A DNA stretch of 64,000 bases from Actinomycetota bacterium (GTDB lineage: Bacteria; Actinomycetota; Acidimicrobiia; Acidimicrobiales; Ilumatobacteraceae): assembly GCA_030645495.1 (NCBI GenBank), contig JAUSLV010000011.1, positions 256,659-320,658 on the forward strand. Reading direction: 5' to 3'. Both the position numbers and the translations under genes were made by a program. Below the pieces are notes generated by a model. The model did no database searches. It had not been told where the DNA came from and worked only from the letters and a program-made list of their open reading frames with translations. Shown in pieces: positions 2,517 through 50,012 of the stretch (position 1 is its first letter; every line of letters starts with the position of its first letter).

Positions 2517-2786
2517 GTGACTCCCGCTCCCGCGTCTGCCATCCCGGCCGACACCACCGCTGAAGCGTGGCGGGCGCAGATGCGTGCCCTGGCGGCCATG
2601 ACCCCGGCACAGCGCCTGGCGATGTGGGAGCAGCTGAACGACCAGCTCGAACAGATGGAGGTGCACGCCGTCAGCCGCCAGCACCCCACCTTCAGCGAAC
2701 ACGAACTGCAGGTTGAACTCATTCGGCGTCGGCACGGCGAGGCCCTCACCCACGCGTGGCTCACCAACGCACCGCGGGTCACTTGA
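2517..2786 (+). CDS. small helical hypothetical protein (89 aa) with a C-terminal RRRHGEALTH (Rx6H, HEPN-like) motif; candidate partner or antitoxin of the downstream nucleotidyltransferase
   Basis: The ORF has a GTG start. Its stop overlaps the next gene's ATG (TGATG at 2784-2788), suggesting translational coupling. No confident family assignment is made. Confidence 0.55.
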   Translation: MTPAPASAIPADTTAEAWRAQMRALAAMTPAQRLAMWEQLNDQLEQMEVHAVSRQHPTFSEHELQVELIRRRHGEALTHAWLTNAPRVT

Positions 2787-3364
2787 TGGGCCTGGTCGCT
2801 GCTTTTCGCCACGTCGCAACTGCGCTCGAAGCAGCAGCAGTCGACTACGTGGTCGTCGGATCAGCAGCCGCAGCAGCCTGGGGTGTGATTCGCTCCACCC
2901 GAGACATCGATCTGGTGATGGTGGTGACGGAAGGTTCGGCCGCCGCGTTGTTGGAAGGTTTGATCGACGCCGACTTCTATGTCCCCGTCAACGCGGCCGC
3001 CGAAGCACTTGCCGGCGGAGGATCGTTCAATGTCCTGCACCCGGCCACGGGTGGGAAGGTCGACGTCTTCGTCTGCCCGGCGAACGACCAGTTCGAGGTC
3101 CAACGCATTGCGCGCCGGGTTCGGATGGAGGTGTTCGGCGTCGGCTCTTGGGTTGCGACACCAGAGGATGTGGTGTTGTCGAAACTCCGTTGGCGGCTCG
3201 AATCGCAATCCGACGTGCAATGGCGCGACTGCGTCGAGCTTGCTGCGGTGCACACCCTCGACCGCAGGCATCTTCGCGTGTGGGCCGAGCGCCTCGGGAT
3301 CACTCCCGACCTCGACGCGTTGCTCGATCAGGTCGACACCGCTGGTGGCGGCGCTACCAGCTGA
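2786..3364 (+). CDS. nucleotidyltransferase-fold protein (GrpB/UPF0157-like or MNT/MenT-like), 192 aa
   Basis: The sequence VVVGSAAAAAWGVIRSTRDIDLV fits the hG[GS]x9-13DhD nucleotidyltransferase motif. The C-terminal PEDVVLSKLRWRL resembles GrpB. The protein ends ...GGGATS* in the second copy of the repeat. Confidence 0.6.
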   Translation: MGLVAAFRHVATALEAAAVDYVVVGSAAAAAWGVIRSTRDIDLVMVVTEGSAAALLEGLIDADFYVPVNAAAEALAGGGSFNVLHPATGGKVDVFVCPANDQFEVQRIARRVRMEVFGVGSWVATPEDVVLSKLRWRLESQSDVQWRDCVELAAVHTLDRRHLRVWAERLGITPDLDALLDQVDTAGGGATS

Positions 3365-3373
3365 GCCGGGCCA
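3348..3373. repeat. Direct repeat copy 2 (GGCGGCGCTACCAGCTGAGCCGGGC)
   Basis: It is an exact 25-nt match to 2450..2475. It spans the 3' ends of the nucleotidyltransferase gene (+) and of the GNAT gene (-). Confidence 0.9.
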
Positions 3374-4367
3374 ACGCCTCGCCCTCCACCACGTCGCCGG
3401 TGGGCACGAACCCGAAGCGGAGGTAGAGGGGCCGCGGGCTGCCGACGTGTTCGCGGTACGACACGGTGAGGCTGCGAGCGCCGGCCGCCTGGGTGCGCTC
3501 GGCCACCAGTTGCAGTACCTGTGTGCCGATGCCGCGCCGTTGGTGCCGACGGTCGATGAGCAGGCGCCACAGATATGGCTCGTCGGTGAGGTCGTTGCGA
3601 TCCGCCAATTGCACGAAGCCCACCGGCTCGCCATCGGCCTCGATGCCGAGCGACTGCGACACGAATGGCAGGCCGCGTACCTGTAGTGGCACCGCTGCCT
3701 GGGCGAGCGATGCCTCCACCGGGCGCACGAACCGTTGTTGCGAGTGGTGTGTCGCCAATGCCAGGTACGCATCGATGTTGTCGCCATCGAGGGCGACCAA
3801 CCGAACACCGCTCGCCGGCGACAGGGTGCGCTCGCGCCATGCCGCGCGCTGCGGGGCGAGGAGCGAGTAGCGCAGGTCGTCGACCCAGTCGCCGCCGGAG
3901 ATGAACGCATCGTGCACCAGCGACTCGAACTGGAACCCCACCGACTCGACCACCCTCATCGACGCGACGTTGCGCGGGTCGAGCGACGCCTCGAACCGGT
4001 GCACGCCGTGTGCGCACAGCGCATCGACCACAGCGGCAACAGCCTCGCCGGCGAAGGCGTGGCCCTGATGGGCGCGAGCGATCGTGTACCCGACCGTCGC
4101 TGTGCGGCCGTCGACCGACAGGCCGACCGCGACGTCGCCCACCATCTGCCCTGCGTGGTCGACCGCCAACTGCACCCACACCCCTGGTGACGGACCATTG
4201 AGTGCCTCCTGGCTGGCGGCCAGCGCATCCCCGTGACCCTCGGTGTAGGGGAGCGGCCAGTCCTGGTAGTGAGCGACTTCTGTGTCGTTGCGGTAGCCGA
4301 CGAAGGCGGGCAGGTCGGCGGCGCGCAACATCCGCACCGTCAGCCTGGTCGTGTGCAGCGGGAGCAT
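3354..4367 (-). CDS. tandem-GNAT N-acetyltransferase (two GNAT domains)
   Basis: Two acetyl-CoA binding cores are present, including RRGIGTQV, plus a RimL-like N-terminal domain. The supplied ORF extends to 4793 but that part is antisense to uvrB. A start at 4367 or 4400 is chosen. Confidence 0.7.
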
Positions 4368-4393
4368 GACGCGACGATAGCGATGGCACGGCA

Positions 4394-4407
4394 CGAACAT
4401 CCGTTCG
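4394..4407. promoter_or_regulatory. candidate LexA/SOS box CGAACATCCGTTCG (GAAC-N4-GTTC palindrome) immediately upstream of uvrB
   Basis: It matches the actinobacterial SOS-box core TCGAAC-N4-GTTCGA. It lies in the divergent GNAT/uvrB intergenic region. Confidence 0.45.
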
Positions 4408-4415
4408 GCGCTATC

Positions 4416-6443
<2,028 letters not shown>

Positions 6444-6446
6444 GCG

Positions 6447-8114
6447 TCAGACCGCGTTGGCCAGCGGCGCCGACATCATCGGGCCCAGCGAGCCGGCCGG
6501 CTGGGGGACCGCAAACAGGTAGCCCTGGCCCAGCGTGCAGCCGATGCCCACCAGGTGCCCTCGCTGCATCTCGGTCTCGATGCCCTCGGCCACCACGGTG
6601 AGGTGGCCCTTCGTGGCCACTTCCACCATCGCCTGCACCACCGTGCTGGCGCGGTCACCAGCAACCACCTGGGCGGTGAATCGCCGGTTCAGCTTCACGC
6701 CATGGATCGGAAGCGCCGACAGCGTCTCCAGCGAGGCGAACCCCGAGCCGAAGTCGTCGAGCATCAGTTGCACGCCGAGCTCACTGACCTGTGCCAGTTC
6801 TTGGCGCAGTTGCACGGGCAGGTCGGACGCCTGGCGTTCGCTGATCTGCACCATCACGGACCCCGGCCGAATGTCGTGTTTGGCCAGACCTTCGACGATC
6901 GAGTCGAGCACGCTGGTCTCGACCTGTTTGTCGAACTCGAACGTCACGGCCAGCTGGAGCGAGGGGGAGATGTGGCGGAACTCACTGAGCACCGAGAGCC
7001 CGTCGTCGAGCATGCGAACGAACAGCGAACGCAGCAGTCCGGCTTCGCGCAGGGTCGGCAGGAACTCGTCGGGTCCGCGGACGCCTTCGTTGGTCTGCCA
7101 CCTGGCCAGCGCTTCGATCGCCATCACCTCGCCGGAGTGCAGGTTCACGATCGGTTGGAAGTAGGCCTTGATCTCGCCCGCTTCCATTGCATCGACGAGC
7201 GCTGCGGTGTCGGCGGATTTGGCCGTGTCGGTCTCCAGCGGGTGGCGAGTGCTGTCGATCGCGGCTTCTGCGGCGGCGAGTGCGCCACCGAGCCCGGTCT
7301 CGGGTCGGCGTCGGCCGACACCGGTGGCAACCGCCGTGCCCACCACGCCGACCCTGCCGAGTGCCTCGTGAATGCTGCGTGTGAGGCGCTCGGTCGCTTC
7401 TTCGTCGACGCCGATCAGGAGGGCGCCGAACCGATCGCCGGTGAGGCGTGCGGCGTAGTGCCGGCCGGTCAGTACGGCTCGTACTGCAGCGCCGGCGATA
7501 CGCAGTTCCTCGTCACCGGCCGAGTGGCCGTGGAGCTCGTTGTAGTGCTTCAGCTCGGTCAGCTCGATGACGATCACCGATGCCTGCTCGCCGAACTCGA
7601 GGCAGAAGTGGTCGTCGACGCGGACCCGACGCTCCCACCCTTGGCGAGTGCCGAGGCCGGTGAGCGGATCGGTCTCGCCGTCGGCGATCTCGTTGAACCG
7701 ATGCTGGTCGGCGAGGAGGATCTCCGTGTCGGCGAGGGCGCCCAGCAGACTGGCGAACACCTGCAGGGTGGGGGCGATGCTGGCGATGCTGGCCGCCCGC
7801 TCGCGCGGGTCGAATCCGACGAGCTCGCCGAACGGGCTGCCGTCGGGGCACCGCACCGGTGCGCACGCCCAGTGGTCGCTGCTGCGGCTGATCGGGGCGG
7901 GGAGTGTCTCGTGTACGTGAATCTCGCCACGTGGGTCGAACACCGCAAGGGTGTAACTGCCCTCCGCGTCGTACCGGCACAGTGCCCACGTTCCGAGATC
8001 GGAGTGCTCCGAGAGGTGTTGGAGTACGGCCTGCGTGGCGCGACCGAAGTTGCTGTCGGTGCTTGCGCCGATGCTCATGTACTTACTATCGGTGCCGATC
8101 ACGCCCAACTTCAA
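6447..8114 (-). CDS. signalling protein with sensor N-terminus, degenerate GGDEF (TGDRF) and intact EAL domain (likely c-di-GMP phosphodiesterase)
   Basis: [15 protein letters not shown] opens the GGDEF domain and [11 protein letters not shown] replaces RxGGDEF. The EAL domain shows YFQPIV, EALARW and DDFGSG motifs. Confidence 0.75.
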
Positions 8115-8158
8115 CTGAACTTGAAGATTTCCGCAGAGAGTGAAGACCCCACCGGGGG

Positions 8159-8171
8159 GAACACGTGTTCG
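8159..8171. promoter_or_regulatory. candidate LexA/SOS box GAACACGTGTTCG about 90 bp upstream of uvrA, in the divergent region shared with the GGDEF/EAL gene
   Basis: It is a perfect GAAC-N4-GTTC palindrome with a G on the 3' side. Confidence 0.4.
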
Positions 8172-8258
8172 TGCTGCGTGCTATCCTCTGGATCGTGGTG
8201 TCGCACACCCGGTTCGTTCCCAGCTTCGTCCGCCTCGTCGATCGGTAGCCTCCCGCCC

Positions 8259-11129
8259 ATGCCCCCTGCACCCGAAGCCAAGATCATCGTCAGGGGAGCG
8301 CGTGAGCACAACCTGAAGAACGTGAGCGTCGATCTGCCGCGCGACCGGCTGATCGTGTTCACCGGGCTCTCGGGGTCGGGGAAGAGCAGCCTGGCGTTCG
8401 ACACCATCTACGCCGAGGGTCAACGCCGCTACGTCGAATCCCTCAGCGCGTACGCCCGGCAGTTCCTCGGCCAGATGGACAAGCCCGATGTCGATGTGAT
8501 CGAGGGCCTCTCGCCGGCCATCTCCATCGACCAGAAGAGTGCCAGCCGCAACCCCCGCTCCACCGTCGGCACGATCACCGAGGTCTACGACTACCTGCGG
8601 CTGCTGTTCGCCCGCGTGGGCGTGCAGCATTGCCCCACCGACGGCACGCGCCTGCAGCGGCAAACGCCGTCGCAGATCGTCGATCGCATCTTATTGTTGC
8701 CCGATGGCACCCGCTTCCAAGTGTTGGCCCCCGTGGTGCGCGGGCGCAAGGGCGAGTACAGCACCCTGCTGGAAGACCTCGTGGCGCAGGGCTTCGTGCG
8801 CGCCCGTGTCGACGGCGAGGTGGTCGACATGGCCGAGTTCCTCAAGCGCGACGAGAAGCTGGCCCGTTACGAGCAGCACAAGATCGAGATCATCGTCGAT
8901 CGGCTGGTGCGTCGCGACGGCATCGAGCGGCGCCTCACCGACTCGCTGGAGACCGCCCTCAAGCTGGCCGACGGCGTTGCCGAGGTCGAGCTGGTTGCCC
9001 GCGACGATGCCGGTGTCGACACGGTGGAAGGCGAAACGCTCACGTTCAGCCAGCACCTCGCCTGCCCCAAGTGCGGCACCAGCTTCGACGAGCCGGCGCC
9101 GCGCAACTTTTCGTTCAACTCGCCCTACGGTGCGTGCGAGGCGTGCCTCGGCCTGGGCACCACGTTCGAGGTGGATCCCGAACTGCTGATCCCCGACCCC
9201 GACATGTCGATCAACGGCGGCGCCATTGCCCCATGGCGCACCAGCAACACGCAGTACTTCACGCGCATGCTCGAGGCAGTGGCGCACGAGTACGGGTTCG
9301 ATCTCGACAAGCCCTACCGCTCGCTCACCGCCAAGCAGCAGAAGATCGTGATGCACGGCGTCGATGGCAACCTGAAGGTGAAGTACAAGAACCGCTACGG
9401 CCGCGTGCGCGAGTACTCCACCGCGTACGAAGGCGTGGTGCCGTGGCTGAACCGTCGCCGCGAAGGTGCCGAGAGCGACTGGGCCCGCGAGCAGTACGAG
9501 GGCTACATGCGCGAGGTTCCGTGCCCGAAGTGCAACGGCGCGCGGCTCAAGCCCTCCACGCTGGCGGTCACCGTGAACGACAAGAACATCGCCGAGGTGT
9601 CCGAGATGTCGATCGGCGAGTCGTCGGCGTTCCTTGCCGGCCTCGAGCTGGGCGAGCGCGATCGGTTGATCGCCGAGCGCGTCACCAAGGAGATCAACGC
9701 CCGCCTCGGCTTCCTGCTCGATGTCGGGCTCGACTACCTGTCGCTCGCCCGTTCGGCGGGCACGTTGGCCGGCGGCGAGGCGCAACGCATTCGCCTTGCC
9801 AGCCAGATCGGCAGCGGCCTGGTGGGCACGCTCTACGTGCTCGACGAACCCTCGATCGGCCTGCACCAACGCGACAACCGGCGCCTCATCGACACGCTGC
9901 TGCGGCTGCGCGACCTGGGCAACACCGTGTTGGTGGTCGAGCACGACGAAGACACGATTCGCGAGGCCGACTGGCTGGTCGATATCGGGCCCGGCGCCGG
10001 CGAGCACGGTGGTGAGGTGGTGTACAGCGGCCCGGTGAAGGGCGTCCTGAAGGTGAAGGAATCGATCACCGGCCAGTACCTCAGCGGCAAGCGCAGTGTG
10101 CCCGTGCCGCAGCAGCGGCGCGAGCCCGGCCTGCAATGGCTGGAGATCAACGGCGCCCGCGAACACAACTTGCAGAACCTCAACGTGAGGCTGCCGCTCG
10201 GCTGTTTCGTCGCGATCACCGGGGTCAGTGGCAGCGGCAAGAGCACGTTGGTGCGCGACATCCTGCTGCCCGTGCTGATGCAGCGGATCTACAAGTCGAA
10301 GTCGGCGGCTGGCAAGCACAAGAACATCAAGGGCATCGAGTTCCTCGACAAGGTCATCGACATGGACCAGTCGCCCATCGGCCGCACACCGCGCAGCAAC
10401 CCGGCCACGTACATCGGGGTGTTCGACAACATCCGCAAGCTGTTCGCCACCACCGCCGAGGCCAAGGTGCGCGGCTACATGCCCGGCCGGTTCAGCTTCA
10501 ACGTGGCCGGTGGCCGCTGCGAGGCCTGCTCGGGCGACGGCACGATCAAGATCGAGATGCACTTCCTGCCCGATGTCTACGTGCCGTGCGAGGTGTGCAA
10601 GGGCGCGCGCTACAACCGCGACACGCTCGATATCCAGTTCAAGGGCAAGAACATCGCCGAGGTGCTCGACATGCCGGTGGCCGAGGCCGTCGACTTCTTC
10701 AGCAACCAACCGGCCATCCACCGCCACATGCAGACGCTGATGGACGTGGGGCTGGGCTATGTGCGCCTCGGCCAATCGGCGCCCACGTTGTCGGGTGGCG
10801 AGGCACAGCGCGTGAAGCTGTCCAGCGAGTTGGCCAAGCGCAACACCGGCCACACCATCTACCTGCTCGACGAGCCCACCACCGGTCTGCACTTCGAAGA
10901 CGTGCGCCGCCTGCTCACCGTGCTGTCGCGGCTGGTCGACCAGGGCAACACCGTGCTCGTCATCGAGCACAATCTCGACGTGATCAAGACCGCCGACTGG
11001 GTGGTCGACCTCGGCCCCGAGGGCGGCAGCGGCGGCGGGTTGGTGATCGCCGAAGGCAGCCCCGAGGCCGTGGCCAAGGTTGCCGCCAGCCACACCGGAA
11101 GGTTCCTACGGCCGCTGCTCGAAGGTTGA
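8259..11129 (+). CDS. uvrA: excinuclease ABC subunit A
   Basis: The N-terminus [22 protein letters not shown] is typical, and two ABC ATPase modules and zinc-finger CxxC pairs are present. The supplied ORF from 6555 is an upstream antisense extension. Confidence 0.93.
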
Positions 11130-11160: not shown

Positions 11161-11361
11161 ATGGTTACGAAGACGGCGCTCAACATCGACAAGGAGAAGG
11201 TGCGGCGCGCCGCTGAGGTGCTGGGCACCAAGGGCACCACTGCCACCATCGACGCGGCCCTCACCGAGATCATCGTCCGCGAGGGTCGTGCCCGGTTGCT
11301 CGACCGCATGCGCACGCTCACCGACGAAGAGGCCGGCGCCATCCTCCACAGCTGGGACTGA
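11161..11361 (+). CDS. vapB: type II antitoxin VapB-like
   Basis: This 66-aa protein begins MVTKTALNIDKEK. Its stop and the vapC start overlap (TGATG). Confidence 0.65.
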   Translation: MVTKTALNIDKEKVRRAAEVLGTKGTTATIDAALTEIIVREGRARLLDRMRTLTDEEAGAILHSWD

Positions 11362-11774
11362 TGGCCACCCACCTGATCGACAAGTCGGCGTGGGTGCGGC
11401 TGCGTCATCCCGAGGTGCTGCACCGGCACAGCGAAGCGCTGCTCGCGGGGCGGATCGCGAGTTCAGGAGTGCTGATGCTGGAGGTGTTGGTGTCGGCACG
11501 TTCCGCTGCCGACTTCGATGATGTTCGTCTCAACCTGTCGCTGATGCCGCGCGTGGCGGTCACGGAAGCGCTCATCGATCGTGCGCTCGACGTGCAAGGG
11601 CTGATGGTGCGTGCCGGGACACATCGCGCCGCGTCCCCGGCCGACCTGGTGCTGGCCGCGTGCGCCGAGGCGAACGGCCTGACAGTGCTGCACTACGACA
11701 AGGACTTCGACCTGATCGCGGAAGTGACGGGGCAGCCCACCGAGTGGATCGCTCCGCAAGGCTCGCTCGCGTGA
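11361..11774 (+). CDS. vapC: PIN-domain ribonuclease toxin VapC
   Basis: A PIN fold is indicated by HLIDKS and DLVLAACAEANGLTVLHYDKDF. It lies immediately after the small antitoxin gene. Confidence 0.7.
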   Translation: MATHLIDKSAWVRLRHPEVLHRHSEALLAGRIASSGVLMLEVLVSARSAADFDDVRLNLSLMPRVAVTEALIDRALDVQGLMVRAGTHRAASPADLVLAACAEANGLTVLHYDKDFDLIAEVTGQPTEWIAPQGSLA

Positions 11775-28431: not shown

Positions 28432-28515
28432 GTCGAAGTGGCGGAATAGGCAGACGCGCTAGCTTGAGGGGCTAGTGAACTTAGGTTCGTGGGGGTTCAA
28501 GTCCCCCCTTCGACA
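28432..28515 (+). tRNA. tRNA-Leu (anticodon GAG), type II with long variable arm
   Basis: The acceptor stem pairs GTCGAAG with CTTCGAC. The D-arm is TGGCGGAATAGGCAGACGCG. The anticodon loop ttGAGgg sits on a CTAGC/GCTAG stem. A long variable arm and the T-arm GGGGGTTCAAGTCCCCC are present, with discriminator A and no encoded CCA. Confidence 0.9.
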
Positions 28516-28601
28516 CACTGTTTCTGCTGCGGCCGTCCTTCGGGGCGGCTGTTGCGGTTTTCGAGTGCGGGAGTTGACGGCGCCGGCCTGCGGTGGGCCG
28601 G

Positions 28602-34878: not shown

Positions 34879-34906
34879 GTCGCGAACGGTAGTTCGCGTC
34901 GGCAGA

Positions 34907-47858: not shown

Positions 47859-50012
47859 TCAGCCGGTGCGGGCGGTGGCCCGTCGGTAGAGCGCGGTTGC
47901 CTCGACGAACGGCACCACCACCGCCTCGACGGCCGGGATGAGCCACTGCATGAACGTGTTGGTGAGGTGATCGCTGTCGCGGTACACGAGGATGTCGCCC
48001 ACCACCGCCGGGCAGGTACCACCTGCGCAGATCCACTTGAGTGGCTGGACGAGACTGACGCCGCTCGTGGCGGTGATCTCGCCGATGGCGCGGTCGACTG
48101 CCGAAGCGTTCAGCGGGTCTGACACGCCGGCGCACGCGGAGATGTCGTGCCGATGGTCGGCGACGCAGTCGGGCACGTTCTGCGGGGGGTTCGGGGTATC
48201 GCCGATGACCACCGGCTCGATCCCGTCGGCACGCAGCCCTGCCAGCAACTCGGGCAGGTGCGCCTGCCAGTCGTCCACCCCGATGTTCTCGCGGTCGTCG
48301 GCGCGGGTGAGCGCGTAGAACTGCGACACGAACACGACGTCGACGGACTGCTCGCGCAAGTAGGCGCGCACCGACTCGCGCCACGCGGCGCAGTGGGTGA
48401 ACACCGCGGCGGCGCCGTTGTTGTACACCTCGACGTCCAAGTACGGGCAGCCGCCCTGGGTCAGTGACAGCAGCCGCCAGTGGTGTGTCGTGGCGATCGC
48501 ATCGAGTGCGGTGAACCACTGCGCGGCGTGCGAGTCGCCCCACAGCGCGATGGTGATCTCGCCGTTCACGTCGCCGAACACGCAGGTGGGTGTCACCACC
48601 GAGTCGTAATACAGGTGGCAGCCGTTGCCGTAGATGATCCCGGTGTCGTTGTCGGCCGCCAGCAGGCCGGGGCGCAGGTTGTCGGGCACCACCTCGTTGG
48701 CGAGGGCGTCGACGACCGCTTGGATCGGTGGTGTGTCGTTCATCGAGATGGGTGCGGGCGCCACCGGCACGGTGGTGGTGGCCACGACTGTGGACTCGGC
48801 GGACGCGGGCACGGTCGTGGCGACCGACGAGGTAGTGGTGGTGATCGCGTCGGGCGCCGCGGCGACGACGCCGGTGGACAGATCGGGGTGGTAATTGTGC
48901 AGCACCACACCGGCCAGCAGGCTGACGGCCACCAGCGCGCCACCCATCGCCAGTGACGCACCGGTGCGGCGGGCGAGTGGCCGTGAGGAGCGGATGGGAT
49001 CCTCGATGAACCGGAACCCGAGTTCGGCGAGCGCGAACACGAGCGCCACCGCGGCCAGCGTCTCGCCGAACCGCAGCGTCCGTCGGAGATGCGCCTCGGC
49101 GATCACCAACACCGGCCAGTGCCACAGGTACAGCGAGTACGAGCGCGCGCCGAGGTACAGGAACGGCTCGTGCCGCAGCAGCAGCAGTGGCGACTTCAGG
49201 TTCTTGTTGCCGCCCACGAGCATGGCGCCAGTACCCAGAACGGGCAGCGCTGCCGCCCACCCGGGGAACTCGACCACCTCGCCGAACGTGACGACACTGA
49301 CCACCACTGCCGCCAACCCCGACCAGCCGATGATCGCCCGGTTGCGCTTCGTCCAGCGATCCGTGGTGGGTGCCAGCGCGGCCAGCAGCGCGCCGACCCC
49401 CAGCTCCCAGGCACGAGTATGCAGCCCGAAGTACGACCATGAGGGGTTCGCTGCGGTGAGCAGTCCGCTCGCCGCATACGACCCGATCACGATCGCCGCC
49501 ATGGCCCAGGTGACCCGCTGGCGCACGTTGCTGGCACCGATCGTGACCAGCGCGATCAGCGCCGGCCACACGAAGTAGAACTGCTCTTCCACCGCCAGCG
49601 ACCAATAGTGCCGCAGCGGCGACGGAGCGAGGTTGGCGGTGAGATAGTCGGTGCCGCGGTCGGCGAACAGGATGTTGGCACCGAAGAAGGCCGACGACAG
49701 CACCTCTTCCGCGAGATCTCTGATCCGGGTGGCCGACAGCCAGATCACACCGGCGAGCGAGGTGGCGACGATGACGGTGGCCGAGATCGGCAGCAGCCGG
49801 CGCGCCCTGCGAGCGTAGAACGCCTTGATCGAGACGCGTCCGGTGTTCTGCCGCTCTTCGATGAGCAACGTCGTGATCAGGTAGCCGGAGATGACGAAGA
49901 ACACGTCGACGCCAACGAAGCCGCCATCGATCCCGGGCACGCCGAAGTGGTACAGCAGCACGGCCACCACGGCAATCGCGCGTAGCCCCTCGATGTCCCG
50001 TCGGTACCGCAC
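47859..50012 (-). CDS. acyltransferase-3 (OafA/YrhL-like) membrane O-acyltransferase with C-terminal SGNH hydrolase domain
   Basis: The N-terminus carries the RAIAVVAVLLYHF motif, followed by about 10 TM segments. A C-terminal GDSH-type SGNH domain (LWGDSHAAQW) is present. Confidence 0.8.
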   Translation of the reverse strand: MRYRRDIEGLRAIAVVAVLLYHFGVPGIDGGFVGVDVFFVISGYLITTLLIEERQNTGRVSIKAFYARRARRLLPISATVIVATSLAGVIWLSATRIRDLAEEVLSSAFFGANILFADRGTDYLTANLAPSPLRHYWSLAVEEQFYFVWPALIALVTIGASNVRQRVTWAMAAIVIGSYAASGLLTAANPSWSYFGLHTRAWELGVGALLAALAPTTDRWTKRNRAIIGWSGLAAVVVSVVTFGEVVEFPGWAAALPVLGTGAMLVGGNKNLKSPLLLLRHEPFLYLGARSYSLYLWHWPVLVIAEAHLRRTLRFGETLAAVALVFALAELGFRFIEDPIRSSRPLARRTGASLAMGGALVAVSLLAGVVLHNYHPDLSTGVVAAAPDAITTTTSSVATTVPASAESTVVATTTVPVAPAPISMNDTPPIQAVVDALANEVVPDNLRPGLLAADNDTGIIYGNGCHLYYDSVVTPTCVFGDVNGEITIALWGDSHAAQWFTALDAIATTHHWRLLSLTQGGCPYLDVEVYNNGAAAVFTHCAAWRESVRAYLREQSVDVVFVSQFYALTRADDRENIGVDDWQAHLPELLAGLRADGIEPVVIGDTPNPPQNVPDCVADHRHDISACAGVSDPLNASAVDRAIGEITATSGVSLVQPLKWICAGGTCPAVVGDILVYRDSDHLTNTFMQWLIPAVEAVVVPFVEATALYRRATARTG

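Follow-up and report, generated by a model that had tools for sequence, protein, structure and literature searches.

A conserved LexA-type operator candidate precedes a probably leaderless uvrB gene in an Ilumatobacteraceae-like genome

INTRODUCTION

Which regulator governs the excision repair gene uvrB in the Acidimicrobiia, and at which codon does its coding sequence begin? Both questions are raised by a short palindrome located between uvrB and a divergent acetyltransferase gene. A preliminary description of this DNA had recognized its GAAC-N4-GTTC core as LexA-type, and the published record agrees: the motif is that of LexA in the Firmicutes and Actinobacteria, described as monophyletic for both (PMC4951493). 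The uvrA and uvrB genes are early LexA-controlled genes in Escherichia coli (PMC8607333), and LexA and RecA genes have been reported in marine Acidimicrobiales genomes (PMC10205998). Our literature search found no description of a LexA regulon for the Acidimicrobiia.

RESULTS

The excision repair locus and its neighborhood

The window (the whole 64-kb stretch of DNA that was analyzed) has a G+C content of 67.7% and is part of an Ilumatobacteraceae-like acidimicrobial genome. The nearest species-level genomes are metagenome-assembled genomes (MAGs) of Ilumatobacteraceae and other Acidimicrobiia, with UvrB proteins at most 84% identical among the matches listed in the UvrB scan. A protein search returned many UvrB sequences 90–98% identical to the window's, and the loci of these close relatives were then taken from their contig DNA. 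We compared eight lineages with UvrB 84–98% identical: the window itself, L161 (98% UvrB identity to the window), L162/163 (97%), L164 (95%), L165-167 (93%), L168-171/173 (92%), L172 (92%) and L001 (84%). The predicted uvrB product carries the UvrB_inter, Helicase_C, UvrB and UVR domains of Pfam. The features discussed below are collected in Table 1.

Table 1. Genes and predicted regulatory elements around uvrB and uvrA, in window coordinates
Feature	Coordinates	Strand	Evidence
Tandem-GNAT acetyltransferase gene, 337 aa, ATG 4367	3354..4367	-	Pfam Acetyltransf_3 and Acetyltransf_1
Predicted -10 hexamer TATCGT of the leaderless GNAT promoter, 6 nt before ATG 4367	4374..4379	-	
Predicted LexA (SOS) box of uvrB, palindrome CGAAC-ATCC-GTTCG	4394..4407	.	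Sequence, shuffle statistics, conservation in eight lineages
Predicted -10 hexamer TATCAT of the uvrB promoter	4412..4417	+	Relatives' TAGCAT, TAGGCT, TATGAT, TAGGAT; TANNNT enrichment
uvrB CDS, probable GTG start, 672 aa	4425..6443	+	Pfam domains, identical NCBI protein, comparative start analysis
Second predicted operator, GGAAC-ACGT-GTTCG, 5′ of uvrA	8158..8171	.	Conserved in relatives
Predicted -10 hexamer TATCCT of the distal, box-associated uvrA promoter, 10 nt after the box	8182..8187	+	
Putative leaderless upstream ORF, GTG start, 17 codons; TAG 10 nt before the uvrA ATG	8195..8248	+	
TAGCCT hexamer, 7 nt before the uvrA ATG	8246..8251	+	Also in L162
uvrA CDS, 956 aa	8259..11129	+	Pfam UvrA_DNA-bind, UvrA_inter, ABC_tran

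The coaE, uvrB, uvrA and uvrC genes are adjacent in most relatives. In the window and several close relatives, the tandem-GNAT gene separates coaE from uvrB and a GGDEF-EAL gene separates uvrB from uvrA, both on the opposite strand. The surroundings of uvrB (window 2517-3364 and 6447-8114, compared with L161-L173) are fluid even among genomes whose UvrB proteins are 92–98% identical. A DUF6036 nucleotidyltransferase-like gene with a small upstream ORF lies between coaE and the GNAT gene in the window only, L162/163 have neither the GNAT nor the GGDEF-EAL gene, and L164 carries a SurE gene in place of the latter. Directly 3′ of uvrA, at 11161-11774, a 66-aa ORF and an overlapping PIN-domain gene look like a VapBC-type toxin–antitoxin pair, which also occurs in L161, L164 and L168. 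In L165, the stretch that separates the ends of uvrB and the GGDEF-EAL gene contains a long-range inverted repeat: CGAACTCAAGTTCT (8046-8059) and, about 160 nt away, its reverse complement AGAACTTGAGTTCG (8209-8222).

Searches for the SOS regulators themselves gave few matches. Tblastn with LexA and RecA found neither lexA nor recA in the 64-kb window, and across the window plus the first 160 loci its sole match was a LexA in L143, 64% identical to that of E. coli. The M. tuberculosis LexA, used as a protein query, matched Mycobacterium only, and a LexA profile (13 deep-branching, high-GC representatives) matched Actinomadura, Gordonia and Frankiales; neither search returned an acidimicrobial LexA. 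A Pfam scan of 30 window proteins found no SOS-type gene beyond uvrA, uvrB and uvrC.

A rare palindrome with fixed arms and a free spacer

The palindrome upstream of uvrB reads CGAACATCCGTTCG, within the surrounding sequence GGCACGAACATCCGTTCGGCGCTATCATGGCGGGCGTGCCC. It matches all 10 specified positions of CGAAC-N4-GTTCG and 10 of the 12 specified in the mycobacterial 16-mer TCGAAC-N4-GTTCGA, the shortfall arising because its outermost bases are A and G. Such sites exceed the chance expectation. The window holds two perfect CGAAC-N4-GTTCG 14-mers where 0.07 are expected, and none of 100 shuffles contained two or more; the shorter GAAC-N4-GTTC occurs five times, compared to 0.83 expected from shuffles. 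Three of these five matches lie in promoter-like intergenic DNA, upstream of uvrB (4395), uvrA (8159) and an enoyl-CoA hydratase gene (34884). The remaining two lie inside genes: the match at 28477 is within the tRNA-Leu(GAG) gene (28432-28516) and is unrelated to regulation, and the match at 49014 is within an acyltransferase gene.

Both arms of the uvrB box are kept in all eight lineages, and in seven of them the CGAAC and GTTCG arms are perfect; the eighth, L001, has CGAACAGGTGTTCC and retains the GAAC/GTTC core. An alignment of seven sequences has ACGAAC and GTTC as its invariant block, and L172, checked separately from that alignment, has perfect arms. The 4-bp spacer varies freely, with seven variants observed (ATCC, ATTC, GTCT, GTGC, ACCC, ATGC and AGGT), and the flank 5′ of the box is unrelated across lineages, the upstream gene being GNAT, coaE or a hypothetical gene. 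Fixed arms around a free spacer are what one would expect if a dimeric DNA-binding protein recognized two half-sites and not the bases between them. From these comparisons of sequence, we conclude that the uvrB palindrome is a real, conserved operator. Its range is bounded: no uvrB-upstream box with at least 9 of 10 matches was found in L081 (84% identity), L002 (80%) or distant Acidimicrobiia (65–75%). A GAAC-N4-GTTC box also precedes uvrB in the Thermoleophilia MAG L035 and in Firmicutes loci.

The uvrB promoter and start codon

We then consider what the operator would control. A TANNNT hexamer stands 6–8 nt before the start codon in 12 of 58 predicted window genes (three of the 12 starts having been set by hand), compared to zero to two genes at the other offsets between 0 and 39. 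This peak indicates that leaderless mRNAs seem common here, accounting for about a fifth of the window's genes; uvrB, the GNAT gene, uvrA, uvrC and rapZ are among those with a leaderless appearance. More distant uvrB orthologues follow the same pattern: in 11 of 15 of them, a TANNNT ends 6–8 nt ahead of the earliest plausible start codon. A sigma-70 consensus scan of 4200-4600 found no promoter, although such a scan is uninformative for actinobacterial promoters.

The uvrB reading frame offers in-frame ATGs at 4383 and 4416-4418 and an in-frame GTG at 4425, and only the GTG has a TANNNT 6–8 nt upstream (TATCAT-N7-GTG). In all eight lineages, the box is followed after 4–18 nt by a TANNNT hexamer, then by six or seven nucleotides and the start codon. 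The window reads box-N4-TATCAT-N7-GTG; L161 and L162 read box-N4-TAGCAT-N7-GTG, L164 box-N4-TAGCAT-N7-ATG, L168 box-N4-TAGGCT-N7-GTG (a hexamer without an ATG), L165 box-N18-TAGCAT-N7-GTG (its GTG being the sole in-frame start after a stop), L172 box-N6-TATGAT-N7-GTG and L001 box-N4-TAGGAT-N6-ATG. The box thus abuts the predicted RNA polymerase site, 4 nt before the -10 hexamer and 6–18 nt before it in two relatives. A UvrB beginning at 4425 has an N-terminus that parallels the MPPFRLVSDF, MPAFEVVSPF and VPPFRVVSDF of other Acidimicrobiia, and the NCBI protein P0121, named UvrB and 100% identical to the window's, is annotated with 672 aa, which corresponds to a start at 4425. Based on the hexamer spacing and the relatives' layouts, we assign the start to 4425, which puts the box at about -31 to -18 of the predicted transcription start. 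The predicted uvrB promoter is leaderless, and the gene probably starts at this GTG.

The preliminary description had placed the uvrB start at ATG 4416. In such an architecture, the uvrB mRNA would have a leader transcribed from a promoter further 5′, and the box would act as a roadblock or as part of the 5′ UTR. The measurements of the preliminary description were correct; the palindrome does end 8 nt before that ATG (the eight bases being 4408-4415), and 4383 was rightly rejected. The ATG at 4416 is in frame and has equivalents in L161, L162 and L164, from which the gene callers derived products of 675–680 aa. However, this ATG is itself part of the TANNNT hexamer, and no ATG exists at its position in L165 (TAGCATC) or L168 (TAGGCT), where the equivalent GTG is used, and in L165 this GTG is preceded by no other in-frame start. 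Between ATG and GTG lie two or three codons that are not conserved (AG, AD, VA). A -10 hexamer at leaderless distance is present for the candidate 4425 only, the consensus scan gave no promoter further upstream, the entire gap between the uvrB and GNAT genes is just 57 nt, and the annotated length of the identical protein matches the GTG. We therefore regard a start at 4416 as unlikely and continue with the leaderless GTG.

The divergent GNAT gene

The GNAT gene appears to have a leaderless promoter of its own, whose hexamer has the counterparts TAGCGT, TACGTT and TACTGT in L161, L165 and L168, respectively, and TAGATT in L172. In the window, the uvrB box occupies -27 to -40 of this promoter, so that a dimer on the box might also obstruct GNAT transcription. 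Measured from the GNAT start, the first base of the box lies at 21 nt in L172, 27 nt in the window, 56 nt in L165, 125 nt in L161 and 277 nt in L168, and L162 keeps the box even though its GNAT gene is absent. The geometry of the box is fixed with respect to uvrB and not to GNAT; consequently, the operator belongs to uvrB. The earlier suggestion that LexA controls the acetyltransferase is thus only partly sustained: the box lies near the GNAT promoter in the window and L172, but the spacing drifts over 56–277 nt in three other lineages and a fourth has no GNAT gene at all. Co-repression of GNAT is sterically plausible in the window genome and, as far as the comparison of genomes indicates, would be at most a local by-product and not a conserved feature.

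A second box upstream of uvrA

The operator candidate upstream of uvrA, GGAACACGTGTTCG, has the counterparts GGAACAGGTGTTCG in L161, L165 and L168 and GGAACACACGTTCG in L172. In the lineages checked, it is followed after 9–11 nt by a hexamer (TAGCGT, TAACGT or TAGGCT in relatives), and 6–7 nt past this distal -10 hexamer an upstream ORF opens at a GTG. We compared this region in four lineages (window 8158-8261, L161 9758-9862, L165 9958-10080 and L168 9725-9847): the upstream ORF has 17 or 24 codons, its peptide is not conserved, and its stop is always the TAG of a conserved GGTAGCCTC, 10 nt ahead of the uvrA ATG. Translational coupling or tandem promoters could account for this layout. The TAGCCT hexamer directly before uvrA is possibly a second, proximal leaderless promoter. 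In L162, where uvrA lies directly 3′ of uvrB, no box precedes uvrA. In two distant Acidimicrobiia, L005 and L006, the boxes CGAACAACTGTTCG and TGAACATACGTTCG each stand 22 nt before the TAGAGT-N6-GTG of a leaderless uvrA. The uvrC promoter reads TAGAGT-N7-ATG, and no GAAC-N4-GTTC box was found upstream of it.

The site upstream of an enoyl-CoA hydratase gene

Besides the uvrB box, the window contains a single perfect CGAAC-N4-GTTCG, which belongs to a 16-bp palindrome, GCGAACGGTAGTTCGC (34882-34897). This site stands 3 nt 5′ of an enoyl-CoA hydratase gene (ECH_1; ATG 34878, minus strand). Read on that strand, the spacer together with the right arm gives TACCGT, which precedes the ATG by 7 nt. 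Either LexA has a target here that is not a repair gene, or another regulator uses the site.

DISCUSSION

Which protein reads the palindrome?

With boxes at uvrB and uvrA, none at uvrC, and a motif that is the published one for LexA, repression by LexA is the best reading of these data. We infer LexA as the binder from the identity of the motif and from the genes that carry it, and we consider it probable, on this sequence evidence, that LexA represses uvrB and uvrA through the GAAC-N4-GTTC boxes. The proposal of the preliminary description, a LexA-type operator of uvrB, is supported by the conserved arms and the twin site at uvrA. Three observations count against LexA: the box is missing 5′ of uvrB in L081, L002 and the more distant Acidimicrobiia, its outermost bases deviate from the mycobacterial 16-mer, and the window's other perfect site fronts an enoyl-CoA hydratase gene and no classical SOS gene.

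The last of these observations would suit a dimeric regulator other than LexA that binds the palindrome and controls uvrB and uvrA in this clade, and palindromes with GAAC/GTTC arms are indeed used by other regulators, at different spacings. Here, however, the published LexA motif of this phylum has precisely this half-site and this 4-bp spacing, the targets are two classical SOS excision repair genes with uvrC spared, and the motif recurs before uvrA in distant Acidimicrobiia and before uvrB in L035 and Firmicutes loci; another regulator is an improbable binder. The palindrome might instead function through a hairpin in RNA or DNA, for example in attenuation or termination, since a 5-bp stem with a 4-nt loop can form inside a larger fold of -15.9 kcal/mol. 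This fold is no better than that of shuffled sequences (z = -1.17; 29 of 200 shuffles were at least as stable), there is no T-run and a terminator scan was negative, the box lies outside both mRNAs given the inferred start sites, and its arms are conserved in sequence with no compensatory changes. We rejected the regulatory RNA hairpin or terminator on its z-score and the absence of a terminator, and the probability left to any hairpin function is very small. Smaller still, and close to nil, is the probability that the palindrome is a functionless chance match. Short GC-rich palindromes do arise randomly, and two of the window's matches lie in a tRNA gene and a coding region, but perfect 14-mers are expected at far below one per window, the arms persist in eight lineages while the surrounding non-coding bases all change, and a second copy is present at uvrA.

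Proposed mechanism and its implications

LexA repression of uvrB would operate as follows. The sequence at 4394-4407 would be a Gram-positive-type LexA repressor operator, positioned between the -35 region and the -10 hexamer TATCAT of a promoter that would yield a leaderless mRNA starting at or beside GTG 4425. A bound LexA dimer would keep RNA polymerase off the uvrB promoter. Once DNA is damaged, LexA, stimulated by RecA, would cleave itself; the promoter would then be released and the level of UvrB would rise. The box at 8158-8171 would act likewise on the distal uvrA promoter, while uvrC, without a box, would not be subject to this control.

The mechanism itself is not new, and the uvrB operator would be a further case of an ordinary LexA box. 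Our more tentative proposal is that LexA, and not the PafBC of Actinomycetes, governs excision repair in this Ilumatobacteraceae clade, with a regulon that has been locally rebuilt to include the GNAT tie and the uvrA box and upstream ORF; taken as a whole, we hold this to be possible but doubtful. If true, uvrA, having been split from uvrB by the GGDEF-EAL gene, has its own box and an upstream ORF that possibly hands ribosomes to uvrA. Likewise, one operator between back-to-back leaderless promoters, with start codons 58 bp apart, would tie the GNAT gene to the SOS response in the window and L172. The analysis offers an initial look, by comparison alone, at how the SOS response may be controlled in the Acidimicrobiia, an abundant and little cultured class. 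Its practical value lies in a start codon for uvrB that is corrected, in all probability, to the leaderless GTG 4425, and in a seed motif for the Acidimicrobiia SOS regulon.

Comparison with known systems

The closest counterparts of the uvrB box are the Cheo box of Bacillus subtilis (CGAAC-N4-GTTCG) and the SOS box of mycobacteria (TCGAAC-N4-GTTCGA), with which it shares the half-sites, the free 4-bp spacer and the palindromic symmetry. Like the LexA operators of Firmicutes and Actinobacteria, it is situated on the promoter of a DNA repair gene, and the uvrBA operon of B. subtilis is a classical LexA target. It differs from the mycobacterial box in having A and G, instead of T and A, as its outermost bases, and from the known LexA operators in being a candidate site with an acidimicrobial, Ilumatobacteraceae-like host. 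The SOS system of E. coli has the same regulon logic, with operators at uvrA and uvrB and none at uvrC, but its box is CTGT-N8-ACAG, not GAAC-N4-GTTC, and the window's promoters are predicted to be of the leaderless actinobacterial type.

The contrast is larger with the better-studied Actinomycetes. In Mycobacterium and other Actinomycetes, uvrB and most DNA damage genes are driven by PafBC/RecA-NDp promoters of the form TGTC[AG]GTG-N8-TANNNT; in M. smegmatis, uvrB expression depends on PafBC and falls in a pafBC mutant (PMC5656591). We found this PafBC-type motif before uvrB in 15 scanned loci, the named ones being Actinomycetes-class genomes, at 58–133 nt before the start of the UvrB alignment (L009, L011, L014, L016, L018, L020, L021, L023, L029, L094 and others). 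Within 200 nt 5′ of uvrB, it was found neither in the window nor in its close relatives nor in any Acidimicrobiia locus scanned; the Acidimicrobiia uvrB loci scanned carry a LexA-type box or neither motif. The two elements are alike in placing a damage-responsive element, predicted in our case, directly 5′ of the TANNNT hexamer of uvrB, and they differ in that PafBC is an activator with a different motif, whereas the LexA-type box is a predicted repressor site. Excision repair in this clade would thus be organized as in E. coli and Bacillus, under LexA, and not as in the Actinomycetes, under PafBC. As judged by these motifs, uvrB is wired differently within a single phylum, with a PafBC-type promoter in Actinomycetes and a LexA-type box in the clade described here.
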